Positions 9,234 to 62,142 are shown, numbered from the whole stretch's first letter. The stretch: DNA of 63,790 nucleotides, filler included, from Collodictyon triciliatum (GCA_043381765.1; 7 parts of 7 records of this genome joined end to end with filler, not necessarily neighbours in it), one strand, 5' to 3'. The notes: a model not told the origin generated them from the letters alone. Numbers and translations are program-made.

Positions 9234-9397
9234 TCTTGCAACCGAACTGACAAGATTAGTCTAAGTTATAGTCCATATTCATTTGAATAAATCGCTTTTT
9301 TTTATGTTTTATGTGCTTATGATATTTTATTTATTAGATTTTAATTAGTTTGTGCTGTTTTTTTTGTTTTTTGTTTTTTGTTTTTTGCTTTTTTTTT

Positions 9398-9801: not shown

Positions 9802-15813
<6,012 letters not shown>

Positions 15814-16880
15814 TAAGTACTCAATACATACGTGCTCAATAATATAATGGAAACTGACATCAAGCCCTCGTGTGTCCCAGCTCCACCCGGCTCCATATGC
15901 TTACCGACCCGCTCATCCAATGAAGAGTAACCAAACTGTAGGCCGGGGTGAATTTGAAGGGCTATAAGCCCACATAAAGCTATTCTTTTTTTTCTTCTGT
16001 ATTTGATATAGCAGAGTTCATAATATTTGGATTAACAAGGGTGAGTAAAGTGTGTACGGCAGAGTAGATGGGGACAAGACAGATTATTCGGGAGCTAAGC
16101 CCTATCCAAGGCAGTGTTTCGCCACTAAATGGAGAAAAAAGCCTTCGGGCCAGTTGCAAAGTTATTTGGAGTGGGCTCCCTTCGGAGCAAAAGGCTTTGC
16201 AGGCGGAGAGCCGTCTATCTGGGTGTGGAAAATATGCATAAATTCATAGTTTAGTTCGAATTGGACACCAAACACCATTGACAGAGCCGAAAAGTTACAC
16301 GGTTTATTATTTGTTTTTATATTAGAAAGGGGCACACCAATCGCAAGAAACCCCGACACTATATCTTCCAGAAAGATGCATATAATCCAGAAATAGGATG
16401 ACAACAACGGCTCTTGTCCGTTGGTGCTTGTTTTCTCCATCCAGAATCCAAATTCCTGTCGCGGAAGGGTTTGAGCGTGCAGGTTTGGAGCCGGAAAGGG
16501 GCACCACCTTGCCAAAGACATCCGAACAAGCGAACTTGCCCGTTCCTCTCGATTGGTTTCTCGAGAATTTCGGACGATTCCACGGCGCGAAAGACAGAAT
16601 TTCAGAGTATTTTCCAGAGCGAAAACAGTCGCTGCAATTACCCAATGAGCGCATCAACCTACTCAGGCAGGAAGCAGCGGCACCTACACAATTAGTAATA
16701 GAAAAGAACCAACCGCGTTGCGCAACGAAATGATTGAATGCTCATGTTCAGCTATCTACATTGCACAAGCGTATCATCACACCACCAAAGACACCCACGC
16801 TACGCAATCAAATCTGTCTCGTCAAATCAGCTGAGCCTCACAGAAGCCAACCCAACCCAGACCGAGTCGCAAAGTCACGC

Positions 16881-17744
16881 ATGTCACACACAAACCCCGA
16901 CGCACCCAATCTGACTTCCCTGCTGGCACGCCTCGGACGGATGCTGCAGCAAACAAGACGTCGAACAAGCCCTGTCATCAAACTGGACACACCCACAGAA
17001 GCATCCCTCTCATGCCCGTGTCTGCATTCCTCGACCGACTCAGACCTGTCAGCAACTTCATCAACACTCAAAAAGCGCTCCTTGTTCAAATACTATTCAC
17101 GCCTCCTCGACCATGAGCTCTGCAAGTTTGCACCGGGTAGCCTTCCGGGCCTCTATGCGCCATGCAACCCGACCGAGCAGAGCTTTGCAGCCGTCACAGC
17201 AACTGCCGAATGCGAAGGCCTGTCGATTAATCACGCCCCACTTCGAGAGTTTGTGCGCAACCTGCGTCGACTGCGCATTGTGGAGGAAACAGAGCTTGTC
17301 GTCTCTGTGGTCCTGCTGCAGCGTCTGGCCTCGCTCGAAGCCTTGTCTCCTGTCATGGGCCACTCGGCCGCCCCACTTGCCATGGTCTGCATCATGCTGG
17401 CCGCAAAGTGCCTTCAAGACCGCCCCCGCTCAAACTCGGTCTTTGCGTCCCTCTCGGGCTTGCCTCGGCCGCTGCTGAACCGTCTCGAGGTTCATGTTCT
17501 GCACGCCTTGCACGGTGCCCTTCATGTCACTGCCCAGGAATATCGGCTCGCTGAAGAGCTGCTTCAGGAACACATTCACGAGCGGATTCTGCAGGCCCGA
17601 GAAAGCAACAACACAAATTCACTCCCAGATATCTTTGCTTGTGTCCATGCGAAAACAAATGTGTGTCTGAGCCTGTCCTATTCCCCCTTGGCGGAAACGA
17701 ACACCCTCCCTCTTATCCTCCCTCCCAGACCCAGGGATACATGA
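16881..17744 (+). CDS. PHO80/P-U-type cyclin-like protein (intronless; start uncertain)
   Basis: Cyclin-box pattern 'LVVSVVLLQRL...MVCIMLAAKCLQDRPRSNSVFASLSGL...LNRLEVHVLHALHGALHV...EY'. Confidence 0.85.
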   Translation: MSHTNPDAPNLTSLLARLGRMLQQTRRRTSPVIKLDTPTEASLSCPCLHSSTDSDLSATSSTLKKRSLFKYYSRLLDHELCKFAPGSLPGLYAPCNPTEQSFAAVTATAECEGLSINHAPLREFVRNLRRLRIVEETELVVSVVLLQRLASLEALSPVMGHSAAPLAMVCIMLAAKCLQDRPRSNSVFASLSGLPRPLLNRLEVHVLHALHGALHVTAQEYRLAEELLQEHIHERILQARESNNTNSLPDIFACVHAKTNVCLSLSYSPLAETNTLPLILPPRPRDT

Positions 17745-20978: not shown

Positions 20979-23053
20979 ATGACCGACCGCAAAGTGACTA
21001 TCGGACTCGTATGAGCTCATCAGACATAATTACACAGAAAGAAAAAAAAAGGAGAAAGAGGTGGTAGGTTTTTTTTCTTTCCTGACAAATCCACTCTTAC
21101 TCTTTGCAGGTTCAAGAAACTTGGCACGCTGACCCTGAAGAGCACAAAGCTGCTCTCCGCAAAGGCATCGAAGAGGCTGTCAAGAATGGAGCGCAGCTAG
21201 TTGCTTTGCAGGCATGTGTTCATCCTATGGAGAGGCAGAATCAAGCTATCTCTTTCTTTTCTTTTTCTGTTCTTTACCCTCCTTGTGCAAATACTCCCGC
21301 CTCTGTATGACGGATTTATATTTCGCTCGTATGCCGCTAGGTGGCTCCCAGTTTATATTTCTGACTGATATATATATATATATACATATATATTATTGTG
21401 TGCATCTGCCTTTGACCTCAGGAACTTACTCTCCACCGCTACTTTGGCGATGTCATGGATGAATCGCTCTTCTCCTTGGCCGAGCCTCTTGAAAATGGAC
21501 CCACTGGACAGTTCTGCAGTCAAGTCTCTGCTGAATACAAAGTTCATGTAGTCGCCTCTCTGTTTGAGGTAATTGTTTTCTGCCCTCATTAATTTTGCAT
21601 GAACTTCCCAGATGATGTCATTCTGGCACAGACTCAGCAGCTTGGGTGGGATTGCAGACCACTTTGCGAATCGTGTCTTTAAAGACTTTGATATACGACA
21701 AAATATTTTCTTTATTTTCTTTGTCATTTTACTAATTGATGATATTTTTGTGTTGCGTTTAGGATGCTTCGCACATCAAGCCCAATCTGCGTTTCAACAC
21801 CGCAGTCATCTATGGACCAGAAGGCAAGATGGTTGCATTCACACGCAAGCAGCACATTCCCCGCGGAACTGGTTACGAAGAGGAGTTTTACTTTCAGCCG
21901 GGCGACTCTGACTATCCTGTTCACGATCTCGGGTTCATTAAAATTGGCGTCCCAACTTGCTACGATCAGGTCCTTGGATGGTTTTATTATTCATCTGTCT
22001 TGTATTCCTCTCCATCGTTTCTTTTCGTGCTATTTTCTATGAAAGCTATACTCTCAACATTTCTATGAAAATAATCCATCTCAGCTCATTATTTTGCTAC
22101 ATCATTAGTCCTATTTATCTTTGTCTTTATCGATTCATATCATATCACTTGTCAATTTGAACCGGAAAACCTTTTTCTTTTTCCGTTTATGAACATATTG
22201 ATACCACGGAGCCACGATACCTACATAATCTTATATGCAGTGGTTCCCTGAGCTGGCTCGAATCTATGGTCTGAAAGGTGCTGAATTGCTGCTGTATCCC
22301 ACCGCGATTGGCAGCGAGCCCAATTTCCCTGGACTAGATACAGAACCCATGTGGCAAACCATGATGACTTCCCATGCTATCTGCAATGGTTCTCTTTCAT
22401 CGTCATCGTCATCGTCATCATCATCATTATTATTTAGTTAAAATAACACCAAAAATAGAAACTATTAAAAATTAATTTCTTTGCTCCAATATTGCTATGA
22501 ATATAAATTGTGCGCACAAAGCATCAAAATTACTATGCTGAAATTTACCCAAGAATACATTGAATACTAGGCCTCTTTATCGGTGCCATCAACCGTACTG
22601 GACAAGAAACCATGGTAAAGTTCTATGGCTCCTCCTTCGTCTGTGACCCCACAGGAAAAGTCATCGCGCAGGTACTGTAAATTCCACAATTTGCAACACT
22701 CATCACCAAATCCACGATGGGCTGTGTCTTGACATCGATCGCAGCATTGCGCACATATGCCATCTTCTGCCACCCACAAAACAAAACAAAACAAAACAAA
22801 ACAAAACAAAACAAAACAAAACAAAACAAAACAAAACAAAACAAAACAAAACAAAACAAAACAAAACAAAACAAAACAAAACAACAATATAGAAACAAAA
22901 CATTCGATAATACCTACAGGCGCCTCGTGATGAGGCTCAAGTCGTTGTAGCCACGTTGGATTTCGCTGTGATGAAGTTCTGGCGCGAACTTTTCCCATTG
23001 CCGAAGCAGCGTCAGCCACACACATACAATCTCCTCCTAAAGCCCAACAGTGA
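20979..23053 (+). CDS. Nitrilase-superfamily amidohydrolase (N-carbamoylputrescine amidase-like), 7 exons
   Basis: Catalytic triad contexts 'ALQELTL' (E), 'RKQHIP' (K), 'TCYDQWFPE' (C); also 'YPTAIGSEP' and 'FYGSSFVCDPTG'. Confidence 0.93.
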
Positions 23054-31191: not shown

Positions 31192-34100
31192 CTAGAATTT
31201 GCGGGAGATGAAGAACATGACTGTCATCCCGAGCACAAACGATGCGGCCACTTGCAGGTAGACAGGAACTGAGTCGGGTTGGGTGTGCGTAGATGAAGCG
31301 CCGAATGGAGCAGGCCCGTTACCCACGCGAGTGAGACCTTTGACAATCGTGCCGAGCTCTTGCGATTCAGGAACTTGGAGTTGGAATGAGCCACTCAAGC
31401 CACCGACAGATACTTGGAAAGTTCCTGCTTCCACTTGGCGAGTCAGGTCGATTCCGATGAAGGACATGTCCTTGGCATCGAGCGTAAAGGTCACCACGGT
31501 TGATTGGCGAGGCTGGGGGGGAATACATATTGCAGTCCATTTGTCGCAGTTATTTTTAGTGATAGAAAAAGGCGTAATCAGATGAAGCAGAATCGAACGG
31601 TTGATGGTAAAGTTAGAGATTATAAAATAAGTGTTGGCGTCGCAATTGGGGGTATATAAAAATAAGTCGGGACTTGATATTAGGATCGACTTACAGAAAG
31701 CTCAACTTTGGTGAATTTACGAAGGCGTTTCACCTCGGGGGTGACAATTCTATACTCATCACTGAGGTAAAGCAAGACAGACTCTTTACCAGAAACCTGT
31801 ACATTTTTTTCTGTCAACTTTCCGAACCCTCACCTTTTTTTTTTAATACAGTTGGAAGAATGGCAGTATTTTATTCGTTCATATATTTGGGCCCGAGTGT
31901 ATGCACTTACACTTCCTGTATTTGTTACAGTCACCGATACTGTCACGGGCTGATTTGGGGATACAACTTCAGGGAGTACTGTCAAGCCAGAATATGTAAA
32001 AGTTGTGTAGGACAGACCGTGTCCGAAGGGCCATTGTGGATAATAAGAATCAACCTCGCTCGGTCTTTGTGATTACGGATGGTGGCTGTTAGGAGATGGA
32101 GGCACTTGACGATGTAACAAAATGTACTGCAGCCTAACATCAAAATTAGAATTTTAATTTTATTGAAAGCGCACCTATGCCAGTATGGCATGGCCACAGC
32201 AGCAGAGTAACCAGGGTAACTGAGGGGAAGTCTGCCGCTCGGGTTTGTGACACCAAATACAATTTCGGCGATGGCCTGACCTCCTTCAAGACCGGGCAAA
32301 TAGGCGTAGATGATTGAGTGAACCAAGTTGGGAAGCTCAGCAAGGTAGCGAGGTCGTCCCTATTTAGGATGTGATTGGAATAGTGATTGACTATGATACT
32401 TGCTTTGATAGACACACGAATTGTATCTTAAGTTTACGAGATGCAGATTTGGCGTCCAACTACCAACTAGAGACTATAGATGTTCACCTGAATTAGAACG
32501 AGAACCACAGGAGTGCCAGTTGCAGCAATTTGACGGACGAGATTCAGCTGGCCAGATTCGAGTGTAAGGTCCCTGCGAATATGAATACGACGGTGGTTAT
32601 TATTCAAGAAAAAGTATAGAAAGTGTCTCATACTTCATCACTTAATCCCTTTTATGCTTCATTAGTTTATTAAATGTTTGTTAAAAGAATTGAAAGGTTT
32701 GCCTAATATCTCCAGGCTTTTCGGCATAAGTAGATTCTCCGACACAAACGATAGCAACGTCGGAATTTCTAAATTGTAAATGTACTATGAAGAGAAGCAA
32801 ATAAAATAACATGATGACGACTTTGGAATAAATATCACATGTGGTATAGATATCGAATAATATTAGCAACGTCGATTGAGCATAAAATAAATGGAAAATA
32901 AAAGGAAAAGGAAAAGGAAGAGTGTGATTTCTTTAATTTATTAAAGAAAAACCTAGCAGCCTGAACAGCAGCAGATAGGCTCGTTGCGTCACATTCTCCT
33001 TTGATGTCACAGCCGGGCTCATAGGTGACTGCGGTCTACATCATTTAGGTCATGAATTTTCTCCCAATTAATTGTTGAAATGTAATCAAAAGAATTAGGT
33101 CATGTAAGGAATGCATGAAAATCAAGATTAAAGATAATGAAATTGTTATATGAGCGCTCAGCAGAAGGGACTTTCATTTTTTTTCTTTTCTCTTCTTTTT
33201 GCCATCAATATACCATGGAACGGTCCACAACAGCATTCAAGCCATTCAACACTGTAGACCCAAAGCTGAATTCCTCCTCATAATACGCTCCCTTTGATTT
33301 TCAAATGATTAAACGAATTATGCGCGACATGCATATAAATGTTGTAAATCAACTTGCAAAATATCACGTTCATATGAGAATGAAAGAAGACGTGACTAAT
33401 GCATTGGCATTGCCATACAATATATATGAGGGACCTGGTGATGGAGCGTCCATCCTCCGTTCTGGTAGCGAAGAGAGTTCGCAGTGGGGCCTGTCAAAAG
33501 GACTCTGCGAATAGGGCGTGTTGGAGATGTGGCTGACAAAGGAAGGAGATTGTCTTTGTTTTGAACCAGGGTGATTGATTCACGGCAAGCTGCACGTTTT
33601 AAGAAGGATCATACTTTGTTAGAATGTTTTCACCTTCCTTTCACAATCTATAAGTATTATTGCACAAGTGAATGAGATAAACTAGCGACAGATATAGGCG
33701 AATTAAATGCTTGTTCAGAAAACAACAGTACTTTCCAAAGCTGCCTTGCGGTCTGCCTCGATATTGCGCTTGACCGGGGCAGATGCAGGTTCTGGGCCCT
33801 TCTTTTCTCCGTCAATGTACTCCGAAAGCAGACCCATGTCATACTTCAGCTGAAGAACACGAGCAACAGACTCGTCCAGCCTATTGGCCGATAAAGAATA
33901 TAAATGTAACAATAAGTGTTCCGTAGTTATGATTTCTTGTTTGAAAATATTATATAATCCGCACATGAGTATCACCTAGACTCTGGAATGACGCCTTCTC
34001 GTACGAGTTGGACGAGGTTATCAAAGAAGCTTGGGTCAAGTGCAGTCATACTCATATCAATTGAAGTGCTTTGAATGGAGAGGCGAACAGCCTCCTTCTT

Positions 34101-37543: not shown

Positions 37544-39295
37544 GGGTTGGATGTAGTTTTGGCTAGGTACAATGCGCAGTGCCCTTGCAAAATAATAGTT
37601 GTTAACATTGTGACGGAGGCAGAAGCATTAATCGGCTCGTTAATATCATATACAACAATGTTCTTTCGTGATTGTTTGAGATAAGAAAAGTGAATGCGCA
37701 GTAGCAACCTCTGCAAACCGAGGTTTTGTGCACGGGTTTTCGAATTATTTTTTTTTTCGTTCGCAACTAGACTTCCGCATTTGTTTTGCGCGAAGGACAT
37801 TGGCGTGCAAACACGCTTTTTGTTACACTCATTGGTGGATGTGTGATCTACTGATGGAAATAGTATATCATCTTCATAAGCATATTATGCGACCAAATTA
37901 AGACACCCAGCTATTTCAAATGGTTTAAAATTCGATAATTGTGAGGGTCAGTATGCGATTCTATGTAAATTCCAGAATTGATGACAGTCAACAGCCCATT
38001 CGTGGAAAAAACACGTATCCGATCTTTGTGTCTGCTGTGTCCGGCTTATCCCAGACCGCACCTTTGGAGTGCCTGATTGTCTGGTTGTGTGCCGAGCAAA
38101 AGAAACACTCGTAGTATTACCCGCCCACCGACCTCAACAATACTTTAAAAAACGAAACAAAACAAAAAACAAAAAACAAAAAACAAAAAACAAAAAACAA
38201 AAAACAAAAAACAAAAAACAAAAAACAAANNNNNNNNNNNNNNNNNNNNNNNNNNNNNNNNNNNNNNNNNNNNTTAATTAATTAANNNNNNNNNNNNNNN
38301 NNNNNNNNNNNNNNNNNNNNNNNNNNNNNAAAAAAAAAAAAACAATAAAAAACAAAAAAAAACAATAAAAAACAATAAAAAACAATAAAAAACAATAAAA
38401 AACAATAAAAAACAATAAAAAACAATAAAAACAATAAAAACAATAAAAACAATAAAAAAACAATTAAAAACAATTAAAAACAATAAAAACAATAAAAACA
38501 ATAAAAACAATAAAAACAATAAAAACAATAAAAACAATAAAAAAACAATAAAAAAAACAATAAAAAAACAAAAAAAAAACAAAAAAAAAAACAATAAAAA
38601 AACAATAAAAAAACAATAAAAAAACAATAAAAAAACAATAAAAAACAATAAAAAAACAATAAAAAAACAAAATAAAAAAACAAAATAAAAAAACAAAATA
38701 AAAAAATAAAATAAAAAACAATATAAAAAAAAAACAAGGACAATATGCGAGGTTCGAACTTTCTGACAAAAAGAGGAGCCGACGCGCATAGTGTCAGGTT
38801 CTCATAGCTCACTTCGTTAGGAAAAAAAAAAGGGAAAAAAGGGAAGGCAGATCGAATCGCCAGCTCTCCATATTCTCGCGATCAAGGCTTCTTCGCGGTT
38901 ATTCTTCAAAAAAAAAAAAATAATAAAAATAAAAAGAAGAGAAAAGAAAAGAAAAGAAAAGCTGAAGCTTGTATGCCTGCAATTCAGCACTCAAAGAAGC
39001 TTTCCACTACACGGAAATAAGGAATGAATAATATGGTTAACATGTGGATAATTTCGCTAATTAATATCAGTCAACATCGCGACAAGAAGACACCGAGCGC
39101 ATTTGGCATGTGGTGAAGTTGGCCATCGACGTTCAGTATCAGCCTATTTGTTTTTATTTGCCCCTGCATCATAACAAGAGCGAAATTAGGGATACGCGTA
39201 GACATAATCAATTCATCGCACACAACATATCCCGACGTCCAACAGAAAGGTGCGAATGTCTCCTCCAGGGCCGCTGTCAAAGCACTCCCTTCATT

Positions 39296-42200
39296 TTATT
39301 GAAAGAAAGAACCCCATTGGAAGGCCAGCTCTGCATCGGCCTCAACACCCCAGCCATTTCGGTAGCACTCAGCGACGATTGGAGCGATGAAAGGAAACAT
39401 GCGGTCCCCATCCATTTTCGCATCTGCGTATTCGAGTATGACAGCGAAGGCCTCTTTGTGCCCGGCTTGCGCGAGAGCTTTCAGTTTCTCAAAGTCTCCA
39501 TCCTCTCCGTAGTGCTTCGATGCGGCAGGCACATCTTTTGCAGTTCCCCATCCATACTCATAGCATGCAGCAACAAATGGAACTGCTTTTGCGTACACGC
39601 GTTCCTCGCATTCCAGTATTTCCGAAAGACTCTTCAAACATTGAAAGGCTTCTATATGACCTTTTTGAGCCATCGCCACCAAGCCAGCATAATCTGGGAC
39701 CCTGGCCAGATATTCAGATGCAACTTTAATGTTTCTCTCAACACCCCATCCATGCTCATAGCACTCAGCAAGAGCGGCTACGGCATTTGGGTTAGCATAT
39801 TCCCCATCTACTTTGCTCTCTGACAATTGTCGAAGTATAACTAGTGCTCTGTCATCTCCAGCTTTGACATAGTTTTGTAAAGCGCCAAAATTTTGGGATA
39901 TTTCGAAGGACTTCAGTTTCCATAGTAGAGCCTTCTCTTCATCTTTCTGTACACCCCACATACCTTCGTATAATCTTGCCACAGCATCAGCCTGAAATGC
40001 TGTTGGATTTCCACTTTCACAGAATTCTATGAAATCATGGTCGAATGAAGTGGCTCCAAGAGCAAGAAGTGCCCATTTGTTATGGCTGTTCAAATGCAAA
40101 ACTTGCCCTATTTGCATATTCCCTCCTATTAAGTCATGAGAAAATTCTTTGTGCAGAACAGTCGGTTGTGGTTGGTAAGACAATTTGCCTTCGTATGTTT
40201 CATCTATAAAGGCAAGCTTAAGATCTTCTTTCACGTCGGCACCTTGAAGAAATAATCTTCCATCGATGGTTTGAGATACACAGAATTTATGCCCGATGAG
40301 GAATTCGTATGATGTAATGTCCCATATATATGCATTGCAATCATCACCACTAGAGACTATCCAAGGAATTCCATGAGGACTTTCAATAAAAAGAAGCTTA
40401 TAGACTGAATTCAAATGAACTTTCTTTATTTCGGCAACAGGGAATTTCGTATCCGAGTCCCATAGCACAATTCTATTATCAACTCCTCCGGTAACTATCC
40501 ATCGTTCCCCACTTGGACCTTTCATGAAGCATACAGAAGTGAGTGAGGCACTGTGACCTTCAAGTTTCTGAAGCAAGCACATGTTTGCAAAGTCCCATAT
40601 GCATATTGTCCTATCAAAACTTGACGATGCAATTAAAGCTTCTCCTTTTAGACCCTGGATTTCACAGATATTTGAGATGGACTCATCGTGCCCCTCCAGT
40701 ACTCCTACTTCAGTCATTTTAATCAGGTCCCAAACAAAAATTTTAGCTTCGTCTCCGGCAGAAAATAAAAAATTACTCTCACTAAAACTTTGAATTTGAA
40801 CCATACACTTGACTCTAGCTTTATGCCCTCTCAAAACATTTACCACGACTCCTGATATCAAATCCCAGATACGAATAGTACAATCCCAACTCCCAGAACA
40901 AATCCACATTTTTCCATTAAGGCCTTTCAGGACGGAAATACAAGTAACGGCGTTAGTGTGTCCAATGAAGGTTTTAATTTGCAATCCAGAGAATAAATCC
41001 CATATTTGGACGGATTTGTCATGACTACCAGAGGCCAGCCAATATTCCCCCTCTGGACCTGCAGCGAAGCACAAAGCGGACACACGCCTGTTGTGACCAA
41101 GTAAGGTCATGCGTTTTTTTCCGGAAAAAATGTCCCAAACGCACACTGCACCATCGGCGCTTCCAGTGGCCAGCCAGAATTCTCCATTTGGGCCTCGAAT
41201 ATGACAAAGACTGACTACGTCGTCATGTCCTCTAAATTTATGAAAAGGAATCCCAAAATTCACTTTATGCATATTTGATGCATTGAAATTGCTATCACCT
41301 AGACAAGAATGGGAAAAATTGACAGAAGCAAGGTTTGCACCAGTAAAATTTGCTCCGTGAATGATTGAGTGACTCAAATCAGCACCAGGTATCTTGACTG
41401 ACGTAAAGTTGATATACTCAAATGAAACCTTCATAAAATTAAGAAAACTGATAGAAATGCCGGATGCTAAGCTCTTACTTTCATCATTTCTAGACAAGTG
41501 AATAAGTTTGAATAAAAATTGGATAATTAATCTTCGATTCAAGTTCTCAATTTTCGGTAAATTTTCTACTTGTTCAGATAAAAAATTGTAAATCTCGGTA
41601 AAAAAGATTAGGTCTTTGTCTTGCCCAGAGGCATGATAGCTTTCTGAAAGATATTTGCAAGACTTTAAGGATTTAAGGTGGTACCAACCAAGATTTTTAG
41701 CATAGTAATTCTTCATACTTATCCAAAATTCTATAGCTTCATTGAATTTCTTCGATTCAGAAAATATATTACCCACTCGAACGCATAGAGCCCAAATGCT
41801 GAAATGATTGGCATGATGCTTTTCTTGTAAAATTGAAATACATGCACGATATAGATATATCTGAATTTCGATTTTGTTGACGGCTCTCATGTAGTCAATT
41901 ACTCTAATTGTTTGGACTATGTCTTTTAGTGCCATTTTTGAATTAGTTTGTTTCCTTATTTTGATGGCATCTTCAAAGCTCTCTATGGAATCTTCGTATC
42001 TGAGCATAATTGTAAGATAATAATTTTTTTTAAAAGAAAAGGAATACGATTTTAAGAAATTCGGAACGATATGAATAACTATGATTTCGACCTATGAAGC
42101 TCGAAGTTAACCCGGCCGATATCTTCTAGAGAGCTGGCATACTTGATATCATCACATCCATAGCAGACTTTAATGATTTCTTGTGCTTTTCTGTACCATG

Positions 42201-45200
42201 ACAGAGATTCCTGATACCTTTAGGTATATTTAATTATTTTATTTTAAAAAAAATACAGTACAATGACCTGAAATTTTGATTCACCCTTTTAATTTTTCCA
42301 AAACGTATCCTGTTTTTGTATACACAGATACAACGTCTGGATGGATTTCACCCAGTGTTGATAAGTATCCTGCTAAACTCTCCTTAAGATGAAGTAGTGC
42401 GCCTTGCCAACTGTTTTAAAGAATATAAATAAATGTTTAAATTCAAATATGTGTTTGTTAGTACTTTTCTTCGAAGATGTAAACATCTGCCATTTCCTCC
42501 GATACTTTTGATACATTAAAGTGAGTCTTTCCGAAGGTTTTCTCGAATATCATTTTTGCTTCTTCATATAGATTCAGGGCATCTTCGATTCTAATAGGGT
42601 TTGATATTAAATGTAAGTACTACACATTGATAAAAATATAAGCGACATTACTTTTCCTCCATAAACTCAACCCTTCCAAGATTTCTAAGGGAGAAGGCAA
42701 TGGAAGGGTGTTCATGACCCAAGTTCATCTTTCGGAATTTCATCGCAAGGTTAAAAGATTCCAAAGATTTACTAAACCTGCAGTATTGATAAGTAAAAAT
42801 AAGTGTAATAAAATTAGAAGCTTTTATAAATAAGTAATAATCAAATAACCTTCTTTGGAGCAGGTATACTTGTCCAATATTATCAAGAGACTGAGCATAA
42901 AGGGCGGCGTGCCCCTTCAAATTTTCAGTTTGTATTTTGAGAGATAACTGGTATTCTGAAATTGCTTCCTCCAATCTAAATCATTAAGATATAATTGTTG
43001 ATTAATAAATTGTACTACAAAAATTATGATTCATTCTGATTTATACCTGCCAGAGTGCATGCATATGGAACCTAGCTCGTCATGTAATGTTGATTCTAGA
43101 TTGTGATCTTTGTTTGGACTTGTCTTCAAGATAAGAAGGCATTTTTGAAGGCATGATTCCGATTCAGCCCATCTTAATTTAAATGGTAAAGTCACTTATA
43201 ATCTTTGGATCGATAATTTCAAAGTCTCTTAATAAATTATTTTTTACTTGTGCATATTTTTGTACAATATCCCTAGGTTTTGATATTCGTACACGCAGTT
43301 TTCTGCAAAAATTGTAAATAAGATCTTAAGTAGCTTTAATCTCTGCTAAAATTTCTTATCGATGTACGTACCATGATTTTGTTGTCTCGAGAGGCGTTGC
43401 AAAACAATTGGATGTAGGTATGTGTTTTCATAAAGTTCCAAAAAGAAATTTACAAGTAGTTGACCGACACTTCTAGTTGACTAAATTGATTGATTTTTAC
43501 TAGAGAATCGTGGGTAGATGTGAAAAATAATTATTAATTACTTGTATTAAAGTGCGGTAAATATCCTTGTGATGTGCCACTCTATTAGACGATATTACTT
43601 TCCAGTAGTAAAAGAATTCATATCGATAGAGACCCCCAAGCATTTTGGAAACAACCTATGATGATAAAATTACAAAAATTGGGTTGAAGAGGGGAGTGGT
43701 CAGAAGCATTGGATATTTGTAAAGTAATTTACATGCTCTTTGGATAAGTAATCCACGAGTAATTCAAAAAGCCCTCCTTGAAAAAGCTGATGACATATTT
43801 CAGCAACAAGCTCCTCTTTTACAGATTCGTCAACTGCAAAATTGCTATATAACCATAGGCCAATGCTTTTCTGTGCTTCGAGCCTTTTATCAGGAATTTC
43901 AAAGAAATACTTTTCCGCTGATTCTCGAATCAGTTGGTGACAGAAATTGTATCTATCAATTAGAAAATATTACGGAAACACGCCGATAAAAGTTAACGGT
44001 AATTTATTTAATTATAACCTCCAGTTGCTGATGAACAGAAACCCACTAATCATATAAAAAAAGGACTTCCTATTAAAATCAATGGAAGAAATAAGAAATA
44101 GAATTAATTAATATTTAATGGTCTTGATGTATTTCTATTGAGAAAAAGTCGATAAGTCGACATAATATTTCCAAAGTTTTCCTTTTCAATAAAAATATTG
44201 TGTTACCAGTCTTGATAATAGAAGCCTTTTCCAACAGCCCATTCGACGTAACAGTCCAATTCATGTTCAGAAAAACCGATCCGGCAGACACAAAGTGCTT
44301 TCATCGATATATCAACCATGCGAGATTCTATGTATTGGGTTTGATTGCACGTCTGCTTATTTATTTATAATGGCACTTAAATTGAATAGACATACCATCT
44401 CGATTGAATTTTTCTTGCCAACGACCTATAATGATTGCAAAAAGGCTCGGTACTCCCTCCATCGATAAAAGTTGATGGAGAGTATATTCTAGCCTCTCAT
44501 AAACACCATATACTCGAATCTCTTCCAGCAGAATGCGTAAATAAAGCGGATGTCCTAAATTGGAGCATGGTTGCTATACTTTGCATTCGAAATAATTTCG
44601 GGGAAAAAATAAATACCTGTGGGTATTTTGGGGCTTGAAATCATTCTTTGCTGAGATTCATTGAGGGATTTGTCATAATACTTCAAAAATGTGACACATG
44701 CATCAACTATTTCATTTTCTTTTAATCCTGAAACTGAAATGACCTCCATATTCGCCTCTATAGCGACCTTTTTTTTTCACAAAAGAATAAGTTCAAAAGA
44801 AAAATAGAATCATGTACAATTTTTCGTTAACGTATTAGTTATTACTCTGCTTGTATGGTGAGTGTCTACAGTGGATAGAACTAATGACACATTATTGGGG
44901 ATTGTTTTCGGTATCCAAGTCAACAAATTAGGGTTAAAATTGACTTTTGAGGGACAAATTTGGTTGATCGCATCGATGAAGAAGATGTGCTGCGCTTTTC
45001 TATACATAAATAATATGGAATTTACAGTATGTTAATTTTAAATTAAATGATTATGAATTATGAATTTATACATCATGCATTTCTTCTCTCTAAGCATAAC
45101 TTAGTAAAAGGAAGAGTAAAATAATGTGCCATACATTTTTTGTCTTTCTATGAAATGGAATAATCCGTGCAGTCCTTCCTCTTCAAAGCCTTTATTAAAT

Positions 45201-47166
45201 AGATATTTGAGAGGGAAAAAATGATGACTAAATTAAAAATTCAATCATACTTTTAGTATCCTTGGGATTTACTTCGTAGGTGTCATTCGAACTAAGGACG
45301 CTGACCCAAAATCGCACAGCGATTCTAAAAGAACAAAAGAACAAAAGAACAAAAAAACAAAAAACAAAAAACAAAAAACAAAAAACAAATAAACAATAAA
45401 AAAAACAACAAAAAAACAACAAAAAACAACAAAAAACAACAAAAAACAACAAAAAAAAAACAACAAAAAAGCGAACAAAAACAAACAAATAAATAAACAA
45501 CAATTGATGATACCAACAAAATATAACATAAGATTTTCCTTCTGATTTTGAGAACTTTTGGAAAATACCTTTCAATATAGTTACTTATGTTTGAGCATCC
45601 AACAAAATGGTAGGTTATCGTCGCATTTTGTAATTCCCGTCCTTCAAGATCTCTAATAGCTGCGGCCATAATGGAAGACTTCCCTATTCCAGACTGGGCT
45701 ATTAGAATACAAGGGTTGCTTTTTTTCCCTAGCAACTGATCAAAAACCTAGGTTTATACAAAAAAATGAGTTTAAAGCGCACTAATTTTTATATATGCAG
45801 TTAATTTTTTTATTACATTATTACATTTTCAACTACACATGATATGATTTCGCTTCTTCCTTCGAAACCAACCAAGCGATTTACTTTGAATTGATAATGG
45901 GCCTGGTCTTCAATATTTCTTGCCTAATATTTAGATATCTAAATGAGGTTTTTTTTTGTTTACGAATCGAAGCTTCCAATTTTCTTTAAATGTTATTGAG
46001 ACCAAGGTATTTGAAAACTTACAAGAGGCTTTGAAAAATCGCGTTCGATGGAATATTTCAGATGAGACACGACAAAATCAGAATATTCTTTTGGGCTTTG
46101 GTAAATGTACGTGCCATACTTTTGTTTTATCTTTTCCTTTAGCCTCTCTTGCTTTTGAGCCTTTTGAAATAAATATAATAGGTTTTTAGGCAAAGTTACA
46201 GCGCAAAACAAATTTAATTTTAAAGTACAGCTTCTTGGCTTTCTGCAATGAAAAGGTGCTGGTTCTCCTCTGATGTGTTTGCAAGGGCCCAATCTTGATC
46301 ACGAAAGTAGAAGAAAACTCGACTGCACACCGGCCTATCAATCAAGCAGGCATACTGAACCTAATTTATTTTTTGTTATAAATTTGACCTGTCATGCTGA
46401 ACAGTATTTTAGAAACATTCAAACCTCATATTCAGTCGCACTTAAACCTTGTAGAGATATAAGGAAAGGAAACCGCTCACAAGAATCAGATCTCCACTCT
46501 ACATTCGATTTGTTGAGTGTTTCTGTCTGTTGGCTACCTTTCGATTCTTCTGCTGGTGATTCCCCATTGGTCTCCATTTTGCTTCGGTCAGGAACCCAAC
46601 CATAACGAGCTCCCAAAGAGCAAACAAAGTATGGACATTTTTCAACTGATTCAAGACAACGGATTATAATCTACAATTATTTAAGGAAAAATTAGCTTTA
46701 GCTAATTTTATTTTTCCTTCTAATTCGTGGCATGTTAATTTGCGTAACTTCATGGCAAATAGGTTGGTAGTTCTAACCCATCCTCCATTGCTATCTGAGG
46801 ACGTAAGTCCCCATCGAAGGTCTATGAAGACGAGCTCCACTTCCTTGGCTTTGGCTGCAAGTCTCAGTCTGTTTGTACAGTAATATAGTGAAGGCAGTTT
46901 ATGACATTTAACCGTATTATAAAAATTAAAAAGAAAAGAAAAGAAAGTTTTGATTATGGGAATAAACTAACTCACTCGGGGGCACCATATAGAAGAAACT
47001 CGTCACGCTCTTTTTGCATATCGTTAAATGTCGACGAAAAGAACACACGAACAGAGCGCTTCTCAAAAAGCGACTCATCCAACTTCTTTGATGTGAAGTA
47101 TTTCATTGGAGGGGGTGTCCATTTTCTGACCAATTTTTCATTCGGTTCATCTCGTATTGACCTCAT
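39296..47166 (-). CDS. NLR-like STAND protein: DUF4062 + NACHT-like P-loop NTPase + TPR + pentapeptide + WD40 + SEL1-like repeats
   Basis: 'VRVFFSSTFNDMQKERD', 'FIDLRWG', 'LGARYGWVP', 'SATEYEV' (DUF4062); Walker A 'AQSGIGKSS' (~45674-45700); Walker B 'IFFIDAINQ' (~44960-44990); TPRs 'HPSIAFSLRNLG'; 'GADLSHSIIHGANFTGANLASVNF'; about 7 GH...WD repeats; 'LAECYEHGWGVERN'-type SEL1 repeats. Confidence 0.88.
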
Positions 47167-48013: not shown

Positions 48014-48035
48014 AATTTCTATGGACGAGTAAGAT

Positions 48036-48108
48036 GGGGTCGTAGCTCACATGGTAGAGCGCCCGCTTCGCATGCGGGAGGCAGCGGGTTCGATTCCCGT
48101 CGGCTCCA
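48036..48108 (+). tRNA. tRNA-Ala (anticodon CGC)
   Basis: 73-nt cloverleaf: GGGGTCG/CGGCTCC acceptor with G3:U70, D arm GCTC/GAGC, anticodon stem CCCGC/GCGGG with loop TTCGCAT, TTCGATT T-loop; T5 tract at 48114-48118. Confidence 0.97.
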
Positions 48109-49045
48109 GATAATTTTTCGGTGGCAAATGTTTGTTTTTTTAGTTTGACGGCCTGTGCTGCAGTATTTATCAGACGCGGCGTTCCACCTGTCGCACATGG
48201 CAACTCTACAGGGTTATCGCGATGCTTCCTGCAGGTTCTCATGCGTGCGAAGGCCGCGTTTTGCTGTCGGCCGAATGTGCTGATGCCGTATTTCCTTCGC
48301 CAGAATCCGCGGCTGCATTTGTTTGGAGAAGCTTTTCAACTCGGAGGCAAGCGCGGCCGAGTTGCGTAACGGATGCAGATAATGTGGACTTGGCGTGGGA
48401 GTGTGTGTCGGGCCATGTTGGACAAGTGGCCACGCTTTTTCTTTGGTGGCGCTTCGATATATAACACACGCACGTCAGATTCGTTGGCGTTGGTTTCCGG
48501 CTGTTTGCGGCCTGGTTCAAAGGGAGCCGTGCTTGATAATAATACTGGGAAACAGAGATGGACGCCCGCCAGCAGCGAGAGGCTTGAGTAAGGGTTGCAC
48601 AGGGGCTTATTCGAAAGACCGATAATGTCCGAGCTATATATTTGTCTTTTTTGATAGTGATAATGATAATTCAAAAAAAAAAAAAGCTTAGCTGAAAATG
48701 GATGCACGGAAAGTGAAGTCAAACAAGCATCACAACCCAAAACAGAAATCATATATCGTGAAGGCTCTGTTGTTTTGACACCCTACAAGCCATTTTCTTT
48801 TCTTTGCGTGTCTTTCTTTCATGCGGCAGCATGAAACATAAATAGGAATACATGAAAAAATGGTTCGTGAATTTTGGTGGGTGTCTGTGCGAGTGTGTAT
48901 GGGCGATGGGCAGCTGGATAAACCAGGAACCAACTGACAAGCACAACATATTTCGCCTTAGCAACTATTTCACTGAACCAACCATCTACCCTTGACAACA
49001 TCCTTTAGAGGGACCGAATCTTAAGCCAATCGATAATAAACCGGC

Positions 49046-52426: not shown

Positions 52427-55207
52427 CTAGTGGGTAACTGCACCCAGAGACGCGGAGCTGACCTGGCGAGAGTACTTTGCCAAAAGGCCGTGCTGATAAC
52501 GCGGAATCGGAGCCTTCCACAAACTTCTACGCGCGCTGAGTTCTTCTTCGGATACGTGCATCTGCAAACTGTGCTTGACCGTGTCGATGGAGATTTCATC
52601 ACCCTCTCGCACAAGGGCAATCGGGCCTCCATCAAAAGCCTCTGGGGCGACATGGCCAACCATCAAGCCGTGCGTGCCGCCAGAGAATCTGAATGCGGGT
52701 TGAGAGAAGATATTAGAAAGGAGTAAGACAAGGTTGTTTGGGGTGTGGTGGCGTGCTGCAACTGACTAACCAACTAACAAACTAATTAATCAATTAATCA
52801 ATTAATCAAACAATCAAACAATCAAACAATCAAACAATCAAACAATCAAACAATCAAACAATCAAACAATCAAACAATCAATTAATCAATTAATCAAACA
52901 ATCAAACAATCAAACAATCAAACAATCAATATATTAAATATAAATATATAAAGGAAATATGTTGGTCAAAATGTCAGCGTGAAGAAAATAAGAAAAAAAG
53001 AGAGCGAATAATAAAGGAGAAAGATAATCAGTGCGTGGTTCAATATCCAGACAAGAGGCTTAAGGCTGTGAATCAACTAGGTTTGTGTTTGTATTTTTGT
53101 TAGTGGCGTGTGATTTCTTCAGGTAATACCTTCCGTCTGTGATGAGAGCAACATCATTCCCAAGGCCGGCGCCAACCAATGCCGCAGTCACCGAGAGCAT
53201 TTCACGCATACCTGGACCGCCTCTAGGTCCTTCGTTTCGAATGACAATAACCTGAGAGAATCAAACCATTTTGTACAGATCGAGTAACTACTTTAGGAAC
53301 ATTTATTCATCTTTCTGAATAAACACTATCAAGTCTCACGAGCATTACGAATAGAAAGAAAAAAAAAGTAAACCATATGTAAAACACGAACAAAGAGATC
53401 TTATAAGTAACATACATCTCCTTTCTTAATTAGTCCGTTTAGGACATCTTTTAAAGCTGTCTCCTCATTCTCATAAACGCGAGCCGGGCCCTGGTGAATA
53501 TTTGTAGATTTCCCAGAAAGCTTGAGCACAGCTCCTTCAGGTGCTAGATTGCCTCGAAGAACAAGGACATGACGAAGAGGGGCAGCGAATGGGCTGCCGA
53601 GCACGCGGGTGACAAGTGTATTCATTGTGATTAGCGAACATTCAAACTTTATTGCAAAAATTCAAGAGAAATTGATAAAAGAAAAAATGGGAAAGAAAAT
53701 CACTTAAAGTTCAAATTACAACTAAAAAAACAAACAGTTTGATTAATGAAACAACGGGGAAAAAATTATCATTCTTCTGTCGTAAAAATAGGAGCTTACT
53801 GCGTCAACGGGCGGATAATATTTTGGTTAGGCGGAAGGGGGCCGACCGATGCAAGATTTTCGCGCAATGTCTTTCCTGTCACTGTTAGTGCATCTCCGTG
53901 CAATAAACCGGCGTCGAGTAGATGCTTCAACACAATCGGGAGTCCTGCACATGAGTTAATAACCAGGGTTTTATTTGAATGTAAACGTGATTCGGTTTCT
54001 CTGATGCAATTTCACCTCCGATGTTATACAGGTCCTCCATAAGGTACTCTCCAGCTGGTTTGAAATTTGCAATCAAGGGAACGCGTGCAGATATTCGATT
54101 AAAGTCATCAATATTCAGATCAACTTGAGCCTCTCTGTTTGGAATTGAAAAGAAAATAAAGGACTCCATGAATCATGGATAATATATACAAAATGCACAC
54201 ATAGCATGGCAAGAACAAGCAATATGGGCCAACTTGTCATTAATCAGGGTAGAGTAAATCTTTTCAGTTGTTATATAAACGTATTAGTGGTTCAGTGAGA
54301 AAAGGCAGGGAGACAAAAATATTTAGAGGAAATTGGGAAAAAGAAGGAATCAAGTGATACTTTGCAATAGCCATCAAGTGAAGCACAGCATTTGTGGAAC
54401 CGCCCAACGCTTGCATGACAACTATCGCATTTTCAAAAGCTTTCTTGGTCAGAATGTCTCGCGCTCGGATTTTCTGTGTTCACATTTAAAATTGTATTTT
54501 CTTAAATACTGCATGGAGATCCTAACTAGCTGAATCATGACAGAAGGATATTTTACCACTTATACAATACAAATAAAATATGTTCATAGAAATAAATGTA
54601 TTAAAATTATGTGTCGACCTTGTCTAGAAGGTTCATCAAGAATGAAACGACTTTATCGCAGTCGTCTGTCTTCTCTGCACCGAGTTTATCGGATGTCTAT
54701 ATGGACAAGGTTGTTTTGGCACAAAATAAATCGGCTTAAAAATGATAACTTTTCAAAATTAGCTAAATGTTTCATGATACGCTCATATAACAACTCAGTC
54801 AATTAGTTAATTATTGGTTGTTGTTGTTTTTTTTTTTTTTTTTTTGGTTGACCGAAGTGGTAGTTGAAAACAATCTCATGAATACGAACATTATTGGCTG
54901 CGGGATTTGAAGAAGACCCAGGAATACTGATGCCCATGACCTCCAGACAAGTGGCCATCGTGTTGGCCGTATACATTCCACCACACGAACCTGGGCCCGG
55001 GCATGACTTGCACTCTACATTGACAAGCTCTGTCTTGTCAATCTTCTTTGCTCCAAATTGACCGACAGCTTCAAATGTACTGAAAGTTATTATTATATTA
55101 TTATTTTATTGAATATAACACGGTACAGTGTCATCAATTACAAATCGTATCATTAACTTTGAACTTTTTTTTAATATACAGAGTCATTTACTATTGTTCC
55201 CATTTTA

Positions 55208-60289: not shown

Positions 60290-61325
60290 GCTTAGAACGG
60301 AGCTTTTATTTAACCTTGGAGCTACTGTCTGTGTGTTCGCAAGGAGAGGTGAAGCGAAAAGTTTTACACTTTGGGTGATGTAAATTCCCAGGTCAAAAAG
60401 TCTAAAAATTAAATGAAAAATACAAATCTGTAAAATATACCTATACTTATTCATCACACTAAGAAAGTCATAATTATAATATACAAAATAAATTACGATT
60501 AATAATGACATAATATATTTAACTGAGAAATGACTCTATCGAACACACATTTGTGGGGTGCTCTCTTGCTCAAAAAGTGACAGAATCCGCCCTTAAGATG
60601 CTCTCTGAGCTTGACTATGCTCCCAAACGACTCAGCGCGTCTGACATCCTGTTTGGCCCACAATAAAGAATGACCCACGACTCTAGAATACTCTGGGCAG
60701 TCACAACGGGACATATGCTGTGGTTCTTCTGGAGTGTGCGCGCATTCTCTCGCTCCAATGATTCACCCGAACGAGAAATCGAAGTATCCAGGCTTGAAAG
60801 TCTCGTGCAATACAGCTTCCTGAACAGCCTGCTGAAACACGGCCGCATTCTTTGCTACTCTGACCGCAAGCAAAGAGAGATGTGGGAATGTGTCGTAAGA
60901 TATCTCCCACAGCATATCCAACCCCCGCTACCCACGCATCCAATCAACCAGTTGGGTCGCCCACCTGACCAACTCGCTATCACTGATTTCTTTTACAGTA
61001 CTACCCTCTCCTCGGTAGTGTCTTCTCCTACTCGCGTTTGCTCTCTCCCATGCGCTCTCATCCCGCCCCTTTGTATGGCACAACCTGGCTACACTTTGAA
61101 TTGAATAAAGGAAAAAAAACATAAATTCCAAAGTTGGGTATGATGACTTGTAACGGCGAGGGATAGAGCCAACGATCTGACACTTCAGGCAACCAGACAG
61201 ATGCGAAAGAAACACAAAGCCGACCAGGCACAACACACGTTGGCGCTGCACACGAGCAGAACCATCCTCACCCGACAACTTGACCCGGACAGCAAAGAAC
61301 CCCAAGTCGTTTGACCAACCGCGAT

Positions 61326-62142
61326 ATGGGCAACCAACTCGTGACCGAGATGAAAGGGCTTATCGAAGGCCTCGAGGCCTTAAATCCTTCTTGGGAGCCA
61401 GAAGGTGAAGTGCTGGGCTTCTGCACTTATCTTGGGCTGCACAATAAGCAACTTGAGCAGGTTCCCCCGGGCGTCTTTCTCCTGGCCAAGATTCAACAGC
61501 TGCACTTGTACAACAACAATCTGAGTGCCTTGCCCCGCGAGCTTTCGAACCTGACAGATGTCACGGAGCTCCTCGTCCACAAGAACAAGCTCTCGTCCCT
61601 GCCTGAAGGCGTGTCGGCCCTGACGAGTCTCAAGAGCCTTTCCATCCACGACAACGAGTTTGAGACGCTGCCCAGCGAGATATCGACTCTTACTGGCTTA
61701 ACCAACCTGCAGATCTATCACAACAAGGTGAGCAGCCGCCCAGAGTGTCAAAATAAGTGTTCTTTTCGAAGCTTCTACCCATACTCCTCCACAAGAAAGA
61801 CCTGCAGTGAAGAAAAGCCCCAGCCCACCTGCAATAGCAGAAAGGCGCCATGCAGACTTTATATATGTTTTGTCTTGTTTTGTTTATTTTTTTTTCCACT
61901 TTTCATTCCAATGGTCTTCTGGCACGGTAGAGTGTCGACTGAGATGCCTAAACCCTCCCCTGCAGATTGAGGAGCTGCCTTCATGGATTACTGGACTGAC
62001 GAACCTGGAGACTCTTACTGTCCGGTTTGAACAGCCCAACACGCTGAAGCGCGCCCCTCGCGGCCTCTCGAACCTGCCTTGCTGGAATGAAGCCAATGGG
62101 GATTTCAAGGAGCTGCGCGCTTTGGAGTTTTACGAAGCCTAA
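61326..62142 (+). CDS. Small leucine-rich-repeat protein, possible N-myristoylation (MGNQ), 2 exons
   Basis: Repeated LxxLxLxxNxLxxLP units; intron ~61728-61965 (GT-AG). Confidence 0.88.

Follow-up and report, generated by a model that had tools for sequence, protein, structure and literature searches.

A Collodictyon triciliatum gene for a STAND (NLR-like) protein of the DUF4062-NACHT class with TPR, pentapeptide, WD40 and Sel1 repeats in one arm

Three 2026 preprints describe the domain known as DUF4062, NIR or TeTIR as a TIR-like NADase with activity both in TEP1 and in bacterial defence systems, and report that many NLR-like proteins of eukaryotes carry it on the N-terminal side of NACHT (Osinski et al. 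10.64898/2026.05.01.722283; Le Mouellic et al. 10.64898/2026.09.04.749371; Hornebeck et al. 10.64898/2026.09.21.753143). It was only with these reports that the class was recognised as widespread and eukaryotic, with an N-terminal domain able to destroy NAD+. According to Hornebeck et al. the C-terminal part of DUF4062-NACHT proteins is made up of either WD40 or TPR repeats (10.64898/2026.09.21.753143). Here we describe a gene on the minus strand, at 39296..47166, of a 63,790-nucleotide stretch (filler included) of Collodictyon triciliatum DNA (GCA_043381765.1; seven parts of seven records joined end to end), the whole of which is called the window below. The encoded protein is a STAND (NLR-like) switch of the DUF4062/NIR/TeTIR-NACHT class, and its new element is an arm in which TPR, pentapeptide, WD40 and Sel1 repeats follow in series, published accounts having WD40 or TPR repeats and not both.

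The functional residues of the domain have been mapped by mutagenesis of TEP1, in which E1008, C959, F902, R914, R942 and R976 were found to be essential, while S905, W943 and R908 had lesser roles and R908A retained considerable activity (10.64898/2026.09.21.753143); E1008 and the arginines are also treated by Osinski et al. (10.64898/2026.05.01.722283). The TEP1 domain was reported to have a higher specific activity at higher concentrations (10.64898/2026.05.01.722283), and the TeTIR domains of amoeba and sponge homologues of TEP1 were reported to be active (10.64898/2026.09.21.753143). In a bacterial Avs2 with a NIR effector, sensing of the trigger is followed by depletion of NAD+ (10.64898/2026.09.04.749371). 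The words Pentapeptide and Sel1 are absent from the main texts of 10.64898/2026.05.01.722283 and 10.64898/2026.09.04.749371, and 10.64898/2026.09.21.753143, its supplements aside, has no occurrence of Sel1 and does not join 'pentapeptide repeat', NACHT and WD40.

The gene and its repeat arm

Stop-to-stop frames at the locus consisted of short open pieces that switched frame every 50-250 nucleotides, and of a final frame of 931 codons. These were joined by the shortest frame-preserving GT-AG introns and the junctions were compared with conserved residues, which gave one open gene of 25 exons and 24 introns with a coding sequence of 5799 nucleotides, encoding 1932 amino acids with no in-frame stop (Table 1). 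The start ATG lies at 47166-47164 with an in-frame TAG immediately 5' of it, and the TAA stop at 39298-39296. All 24 introns are GT-AG and they range from 54 to 244 nucleotides (median ~70), with a GC content of 0.24 compared with ~0.40 in the exons and 0.26-0.27 in the flanks.

Comparison was made with relatives from EukProt transcriptome assemblies (P0001, P0121, P0123, P0002 and P0145). The spliced product aligned with P0001 as a single BLASTP segment (amino acids 14-1595, 39.9% identity, 1588 columns), which therefore validates the exon model and indicates that the whole architecture is carried by one mRNA in relatives. Alignment with P0121 extended over amino acids 2-1595 (33.4% identity) and with P0145 over amino acids 560-1734. 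In tblastn the pieces of P0001 were collinear from 47127 to 39920 and there was no second place, and no second copy of the gene, within the 63.8-kb window. As read from its sequence the region holds a single eukaryotic gene, intact and rich in introns, which collinear transcript-derived homologues support, and the one-gene reading of an earlier note on this DNA is thus backed by P0001.

The modules of the protein are, in order, DUF4062, a P-loop NACHT-like NTPase, about seven TPRs, a short pentapeptide beta-helix, a seven-bladed WD40 propeller, a disordered linker and four Sel1-type units. This architecture and the family membership of the protein are assigned with high confidence. The earlier note had listed these elements, the linker apart, from the DNA alone, and every one was recovered in the same order; the coordinates that it gave for the region are exact, the motifs that it quoted are all present in the translation (as STFNDM..ER, DLRWG, GARYG, SATEYE, AQSGIGKSS and FFIDAINQ), and its tripartite STAND/NLR-like layout with an N-terminal DUF4062 module was confirmed in that effector, NTPase and repeats were all found.

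Pfam searches of the window used single exon pieces as queries rather than the spliced protein. Each of the six TPR exon pieces matched a TPR family (E between 8e-6 and 0.01), with TPR_12 in five and TPR_10 in the sixth; single TPR_12 exons scored 16-26 bits, below the cut-off of 30.1, and the TPR_12 score of P0001 was 132 bits. The pentapeptide module was well above its cut-off (E 4.5e-18, 64.9 bits against 20.2), as was Sel1 (E 1.7e-11, 44.6 bits against 30.7). WD40 was matched in six stretches (E 1.4e-42) and seven WD-terminated repeats could be counted at a spacing of 45 amino acids. The linker area (40082-40300) gave no match in a Pfam search. The four C-terminal units are ~66 amino acids each and have Sel1-type cores, one of the form LYEGMWGV and three of the form CY..GWG(V/T).

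An AlphaFold2 model was obtained for the last exon only, from a 13-row alignment, with a mean predicted local distance difference test score (pLDDT) of 68.5 and low confidence beyond exon residue 700. The part after the disordered stretch of ~60 residues was modelled as helical repeats, with confidence falling towards the C terminus. The pentapeptide module was modelled as regular single-residue strands at exon 25 residues 197-247 (pLDDT ~80-89) and the propeller as 28 strands forming seven four-stranded blades (pLDDT mostly 80-96), in agreement with the WD40 of about seven blades claimed from the DNA. Foldseek aligned the propeller with WDR5 and with seven-bladed designer proteins at template modelling (TM) scores of 0.84-0.90, target-normalised. 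With only ~10 rungs, and with its recurrence before WD40 in 34 of 144 retrieved proteins, the pentapeptide part is more readily seen as a connector than as a sensor. The earlier description of three sensor-repeat types has to be amended accordingly: four repeat types follow the NTPase, and the pentapeptide repeat among them is connector-like rather than sensor-like. A search of the ESM Atlas with the helical and pentapeptide part gave a best score of 0.80, to cyanobacterial clusters with TPR and pentapeptide repeats, and is a lead only.

The arm is shared with a small number of relatives. P0001, P0121, P0123 and P0145 all have the TPRs, the helical region, the pentapeptide module, WD40, the cap and one Sel1 unit, with the number of propellers varying from one (P0145) to about three (P0001); the cap and first Sel1 unit are conserved in P0001, P0002, P0123 and P0145. 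A phmmer search among 144 retrieved STAND/WD40 proteins found the pentapeptide module before WD40 in 34, bacterial and Mortierellomycotina NACHT proteins among them, the helical region in four, the cap in three and the Sel1 block in one. When the helical and pentapeptide part was searched against 1.84 billion representatives there were 6590 matches with E up to 0.001, and among the best 150 of these only P0145, P0002 and P0001 covered the helical region as true relatives, so the clade is rare in public data. A 132-residue fragment, P0152, was 56% identical over the pentapeptide-WD40 junction. P0209 was considered as a clade member and rejected, its likeness being merely generic TPR similarity. 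The window protein itself was not among the proteins of 1576-4500 amino acids in a large database, the best match being 36% identical. The composite sensor had been called unusual, and this holds insofar as WD40 together with TPR departs from the published 'either/or'; it does not hold in the sense of unique, as a small EukProt clade shares the architecture. On alignment, what is particular to the window protein is three additional Sel1 units (four compared with one in the clade).

Some relatives carry further domains. In P0121 the N-terminal extension gave a weak calponin-homology match that did not reach the cut-off (E 5.5e-4), and a MIB_HERC2 domain lies at the C terminus of P0123 (E 9e-16). 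An upstream calponin-homology exon as in P0001 and P0121 was sought by tblastn at E up to 10 and only chance matches were obtained, P0121 residues 282-303 falling on 47163-47098, inside exon 1. Both P0002 and the bacterial-type P0011 end in ...CVIS, which we take to be the form of a putative prenylation (CaaX) box.

The N-terminal domain and the NTPase

The Pfam DUF4062 model (PF13271) was matched by exon 3 with 26.6 bits (cut-off 24.7, E 7e-6) and by exon 1 with 18.5 bits; exons 2 and 4 alone gave no match (two of the four N-terminal exon pieces matched). The same domain was found in P0001 (E 6e-11) and P0122 (E 3e-11). P0001, which is ~50% identical to the window protein over the DUF4062 exons, matched the TEP1 domain of known structure (PDB 11gz_A) with E 1.1e-14, and exons 1 and 3 of the window alone matched it weakly (E 0.14 and 0.26) and in register, at chain positions 4-25 and 66-90. 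The 30-residue peptide of exon 2 (46778-46867) gave DARPin matches in PDB, with an E of 6.5e-6 summed over many weak stretches, and an ankyrin identity was rejected as a chance likeness.

Residues were mapped by way of 11gz_A, in which the chain index equals the TEP1 residue minus 893, and this mapping is trusted because nine TEP1 residues fall on the correct letters. TEP1 F902, S905, R914, R942, W943, C959, R976 and the catalytic E1008 correspond to F42, S45, R54, R82, W83, C99, R116 and E176 of the window protein; the sole mapped residue that differs is R908, which corresponds to N48. The catalytic Glu and seven of eight further functional residues are thus kept. The E1008 equivalent is the second of the two Glu in S.TE.E; in line with this, 22 of 25 aligned homologues retain it, and the first Glu is variable. 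At the R908 position the 24 homologues have R, K, V, Q, L, S or M. The E176 codon is the final codon of exon 3 and the GT donor follows directly. With these residues in place we lean towards the N-terminal domain being an active NADase. The guess of the earlier note that DUF4062 is enzymatic has fared well, in that the three 2026 preprints report NADase activity for the domain and the catalytic Glu is present with seven of the eight other residues.

Both the Walker A (GIGKSS, K322) and the Walker B (IFFID, D411) motifs of the NTPase are intact. Exon 7 gave weak P-loop matches in Pfam, to NPHP3_N (E 0.009, 16.7 bits), AAA_16 and nSTAND1/3, and in P0122 the NPHP3_N score was 29.3 bits, over the cut-off of 24.8. 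The Walker B form DA(V/I/L)NQ is common to P0001, P0121, P0122 and several TPR-type homologues, and since it is shared in this way the DA.NQ of the window protein is not regarded as a lesion. A quick maximum-likelihood tree of the DUF4062 and NTPase region (25 rows) placed the window protein with P0001, P0121 and P0122 in a clade with support of 100 and a long branch, apart from the TEP1-named proteins (support 96) and an NWD1-like protein, on a backbone that is unresolved.

Function, alternative readings and origin

With bacterial Avs2 carrying a NIR effector and the concentration-dependent activity of TEP1 as models, the protein is probably a ligand-gated, oligomerising STAND NADase switch. 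In the resting state the C-terminal arm (TPR, pentapeptide connector, WD40 and Sel1) would be folded back on the NTPase, which would be off. Once a ligand had bound to the arm, the NACHT module would be able to exchange its nucleotide and to oligomerise, oligomerisation would activate the N-terminal NADase, and the resulting loss of NAD+ would kill the cell or arrest it. The likeliest setting for such a switch would be defence against infection or non-self, and an immune function is proposed tentatively, as a claim that may well prove wrong.

A number of observations weigh against an NADase switch with a role in defence. Collinear conservation at 33-40% identity over several distant transcriptomes and the lack of a paralogue cluster in the window suggest a cellular gene held constant rather than a receptor that diversifies rapidly. 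Four PADLOC queries (pieces of the window and P0122) matched no defence model. The scores of P0001 for NACHT (24.9, cut-off 26.7), nSTAND1 (26.9, cut-off 27.1) and NPHP3_N (22.8, cut-off 24.8) were all slightly below cut-off, and R908 of TEP1 is replaced by Asn. Mammalian TPR-type NPHP3 and TTC41 were reported to be inactive (10.64898/2026.09.21.753143), NWD2 to be weak, and full-length NWD1, NWD2 and NPHP3 to be without activity (10.64898/2026.05.01.722283; 10.64898/2026.09.21.753143).

Several of these points would be accommodated if the protein were a conserved cellular scaffold or regulator like NPHP3 (cilia) or NWD1 (purinosome), with a domain that is weakly active, or that serves regulated NAD(P) turnover or binding, and no killing. 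The collinearity is orthologue-like, over ~1600 amino acids and in several transcriptomes; the sub-threshold calponin-homology match and the MIB_HERC2 domain of the relatives hint at the cytoskeleton or ubiquitin; the TPR arm is nearest to NPHP3-type Pfam models; the genes around the locus are ordinary housekeeping genes; and the reported inactivity of the mammalian TPR-type members points the same way (10.64898/2026.09.21.753143). However, the window protein, unlike human NPHP3, has the catalytic Glu along with five further residues that are essential, and the window clade (support 100) lies apart from the nephrocystin-3-named protein in the quick tree with its unresolved backbone. We regard a scaffold as unlikely, and prefer the NADase switch.

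The remaining alternatives concern the gene itself. The locus could represent two genes, one for DUF4062-NACHT-TPR and a separate one for a 903-residue pentapeptide-WD40-Sel1 protein starting from an ATG at 42007. The final exon alone is indeed a 903-residue open reading frame (ORF) with its own ATG, all 24 introns lie upstream of the last exon, P0122 has DUF4062, NACHT and TPRs and lacks the cassette that this exon encodes, and P0002 appears to be cassette and TPRs without DUF4062-NACHT. Against this, both frames are joined exactly by a canonical GT-AG intron (42091..42000) of phase 2, which is also the phase of the six TPR exons before it, and in P0001, P0121, P0123 and P0145 the NTPase/TPR part is continuous with the cassette; because of the matching phase, two genes are possible but very improbable. 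It would be equally surprising if the copy were unexpressed or decaying, as the 25 exons together give 5.8 kb of uninterrupted coding sequence, the splice sites are all canonical and functional residues are conserved.

The distribution of introns along this gene is strongly uneven. All 24 are found within the first 3095 nucleotides of the coding sequence and the last 2704 nucleotides are a single exon, which has a probability of ~3e-7 if introns are spread evenly along the coding sequence. The exons of the TPR arm consist of a 55-nucleotide exon followed by six consecutive 126-nucleotide phase-2 exons (42092-43172), each encoding one repeat of 42 amino acids. This layout of one TPR per exon is of a type that permits exon shuffling. 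Two histories would fit the intron pattern: the cassette may have been acquired as a block, or introns may have been lost preferentially towards the 3' end. Composition was examined for signs that the last exon is foreign and gave none: every domain had a GC content at third codon positions of 0.27-0.40, without any contrast, a result that does not separate acquisition from intron loss. It is conceivable, and in our estimation quite unlikely, that an ancient, intron-rich DUF4062-NACHT-TPR gene (as P0122) captured an intron-free block of helical region, pentapeptide, WD40, cap and Sel1, giving a catalytically competent two-armed TPR-type NIR-NLR that would integrate two kinds of signal before NAD+ depletion, and that the lineage then enlarged Sel1 from one unit to four. 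The basis for such a fusion is that the cassette occurs without DUF4062-NACHT in P0002, which may be a 5'-truncated assembly, that the front part occurs alone in P0122, and that a pentapeptide-WD40 core is common to bacterial and fungal NACHT proteins. If so, the product would differ from mammalian NPHP3 and TTC41 in being catalytically competent.

Tandem Repeats Finder detected no near-identical internal DNA repeats. It did detect a microsatellite, T-rich on the coding strand, with a period of ~7 and ~24 copies (45327..45503, minus strand), which makes up most of intron 7, the longest at 244 nucleotides.

The genes around the locus are ordinary and there is no NLR cluster in the window (Table 1). 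The short spliceosomal introns mark the DNA as eukaryotic, and the dihydroxy-acid dehydratase among the neighbours speaks against an animal source. Two ORFs on the strand opposite to the gene (39065-39820 and 46252-46602) matched no family in Pfam searches. The cyclin ORF had no homologue of 184-588 amino acids in a search of 5.8 billion proteins.

Table 1. Features of the gene and of the rest of the window, with positions counted from the first nucleotide of the window.
Feature	Position	Strand	Basis or remark
DUF4062 / NIR / TeTIR TIR-like domain	46023..47061	minus	~aa 36-266, exons 1-5; Pfam, exons 1 and 3
E176 codon (GAG), human TEP1 E1008 equivalent	46425..46427	minus	second Glu of SATEYE, read from sequence
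Exon 7, Walker A P-loop GIGKSS	45569..45747	minus	K322 codon 45679-45681; weak P-loop Pfam; aligned with P-loops of 24 homologues
Exon 10, Walker B IFFIDAINQ	44846..44999	minus	D411 codon 44972-44974; homologue alignment
TPR arm, kinesin-light-chain/NPHP3 type, reaching into exon 25	42092..43302	minus	TPR_12, TPR_10 or TPR_NPHP3 on 6/6 exon pieces
Helical region, aa 1033-1215, start of exon 25	41444..41999	minus	clade-specific; AlphaFold2 helices, pLDDT 34-91
Pentapeptide beta-helix, ~10 rungs, directly before propeller	41255..41443	minus	Pfam Pentapeptide
Seven-bladed WD40 propeller	40319..41242	minus	Pfam, AlphaFold2, Foldseek
Predicted disordered linker	40136..40312	minus	pLDDT 24-39, exon 25 residues 563-621
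Post-propeller cap (GGNM...LLxxGAxSFDxDF..CES) and four Sel1-type units	39299..40135	minus	Pfam, unit alignment
Exons 1-5	47166-46976, 46868-46778, 46670-46425, 46360-46229, 46160-46023	minus	
Exons 6-10	45923-45825, 45747-45569, 45324-45251, 45189-45135, 44999-44846	minus	
Exons 11-15	44767-44617, 44554-44396, 44327-44207, 44069-44019, 43952-43733	minus	
Exons 16-20	43655-43542, 43480-43372, 43302-43248, 43172-43047, 42975-42850	minus	
Exons 21-25	42777-42652, 42590-42465, 42410-42285, 42217-42092, 41999-39296	minus	
Exon fragments	1-900, 10950-15006, 21763-22065, 31195-32359, 52430-55105		MFS transporter, P-type cation ATPase, CN hydrolase, GH3 glycosidase with Fn3-like domain, dihydroxy-acid dehydratase
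tRNA-Ala (anticodon CGC)	48035-48109	plus	~870 bp upstream of the start codon of the gene, opposite strand
LRR ORF	61284-61970	plus	LRR_14 E 1.6e-12, LRR_8
542-aa open frame	7635-9260	minus	no Pfam family
336-aa Pho80-type cyclin ORF	16734-17741	plus	E 2.3e-5

Comparison with known systems

The window protein does not found a new category. It is a member of its class with all the catalytic residues and an elaborate modular arm, which offers separable modules for a ligand search, and it allows one to ask whether non-mammalian TPR-type members are active enzymes. Through its intron pattern it may also provide a dated example of how an NLR-like gene gains domains.

The order in which a short pentapeptide module leads straight into WD40 is also found in NACHT-pentapeptide-WD40 proteins from Mortierellomycotina and bacteria (P0011, P0074 and P0060), and P0011 and P0074 also have Sel1. 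The proteins of this kind that were inspected had no DUF4062 and no TPR arm, and their NACHT is of another type (PF05729). PsAvs2 and the NIR defence systems Swarozyc, Vulcan, Vesta and Evangelion, as described in the preprints, follow the same overall plan, with a NIR NADase at the N terminus, then a STAND NTPase, and repeats that serve as the sensor at the C terminus. Those systems are prokaryotic and sense phage proteins, whereas the window protein is eukaryotic and gave no PADLOC match.

With TEP1 (telomerase/vault protein component 1; TeTIR/NIR, PDB 11gz) the window protein has in common a DUF4062 directly before a NACHT-type NTPase, WD40 further on, and the catalytic Glu together with the F, R, R, C and R described above. 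TEP1 has a TROVE/vWA N-terminal extension, whereas the window protein starts ~35 amino acids before DUF4062; Pfam found no TROVE/vWA in upstream ORFs of at least 95 amino acids, and there is an in-frame stop directly before the ATG. The TPR arm, the pentapeptide module and the Sel1 units are not features of TEP1, which also falls in a separate clade in the quick tree. NWD1 and NWD2 resemble the window protein in their DUF4062-NACHT-WD40 order and in having no N-terminal extension, but are without a TPR arm; the NWD1-like P0135 had its own long branch in the quick tree, and the measured activity of NWD1 and NWD2 is reported as low or absent.

NPHP3 and TTC41 share with the window protein the DUF4062, a NACHT-like NTPase (NPHP3_N model, matched weakly by exon 7 of the window), TPRs of the kinesin-light-chain type and the DA.NQ Walker B that is also seen in other TPR-type homologues. 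Human NPHP3 is reported to lack the catalytic Glu and to be inactive (10.64898/2026.09.21.753143), whereas the window protein keeps this Glu and continues beyond its TPRs into the pentapeptide, WD40 and Sel1 modules.

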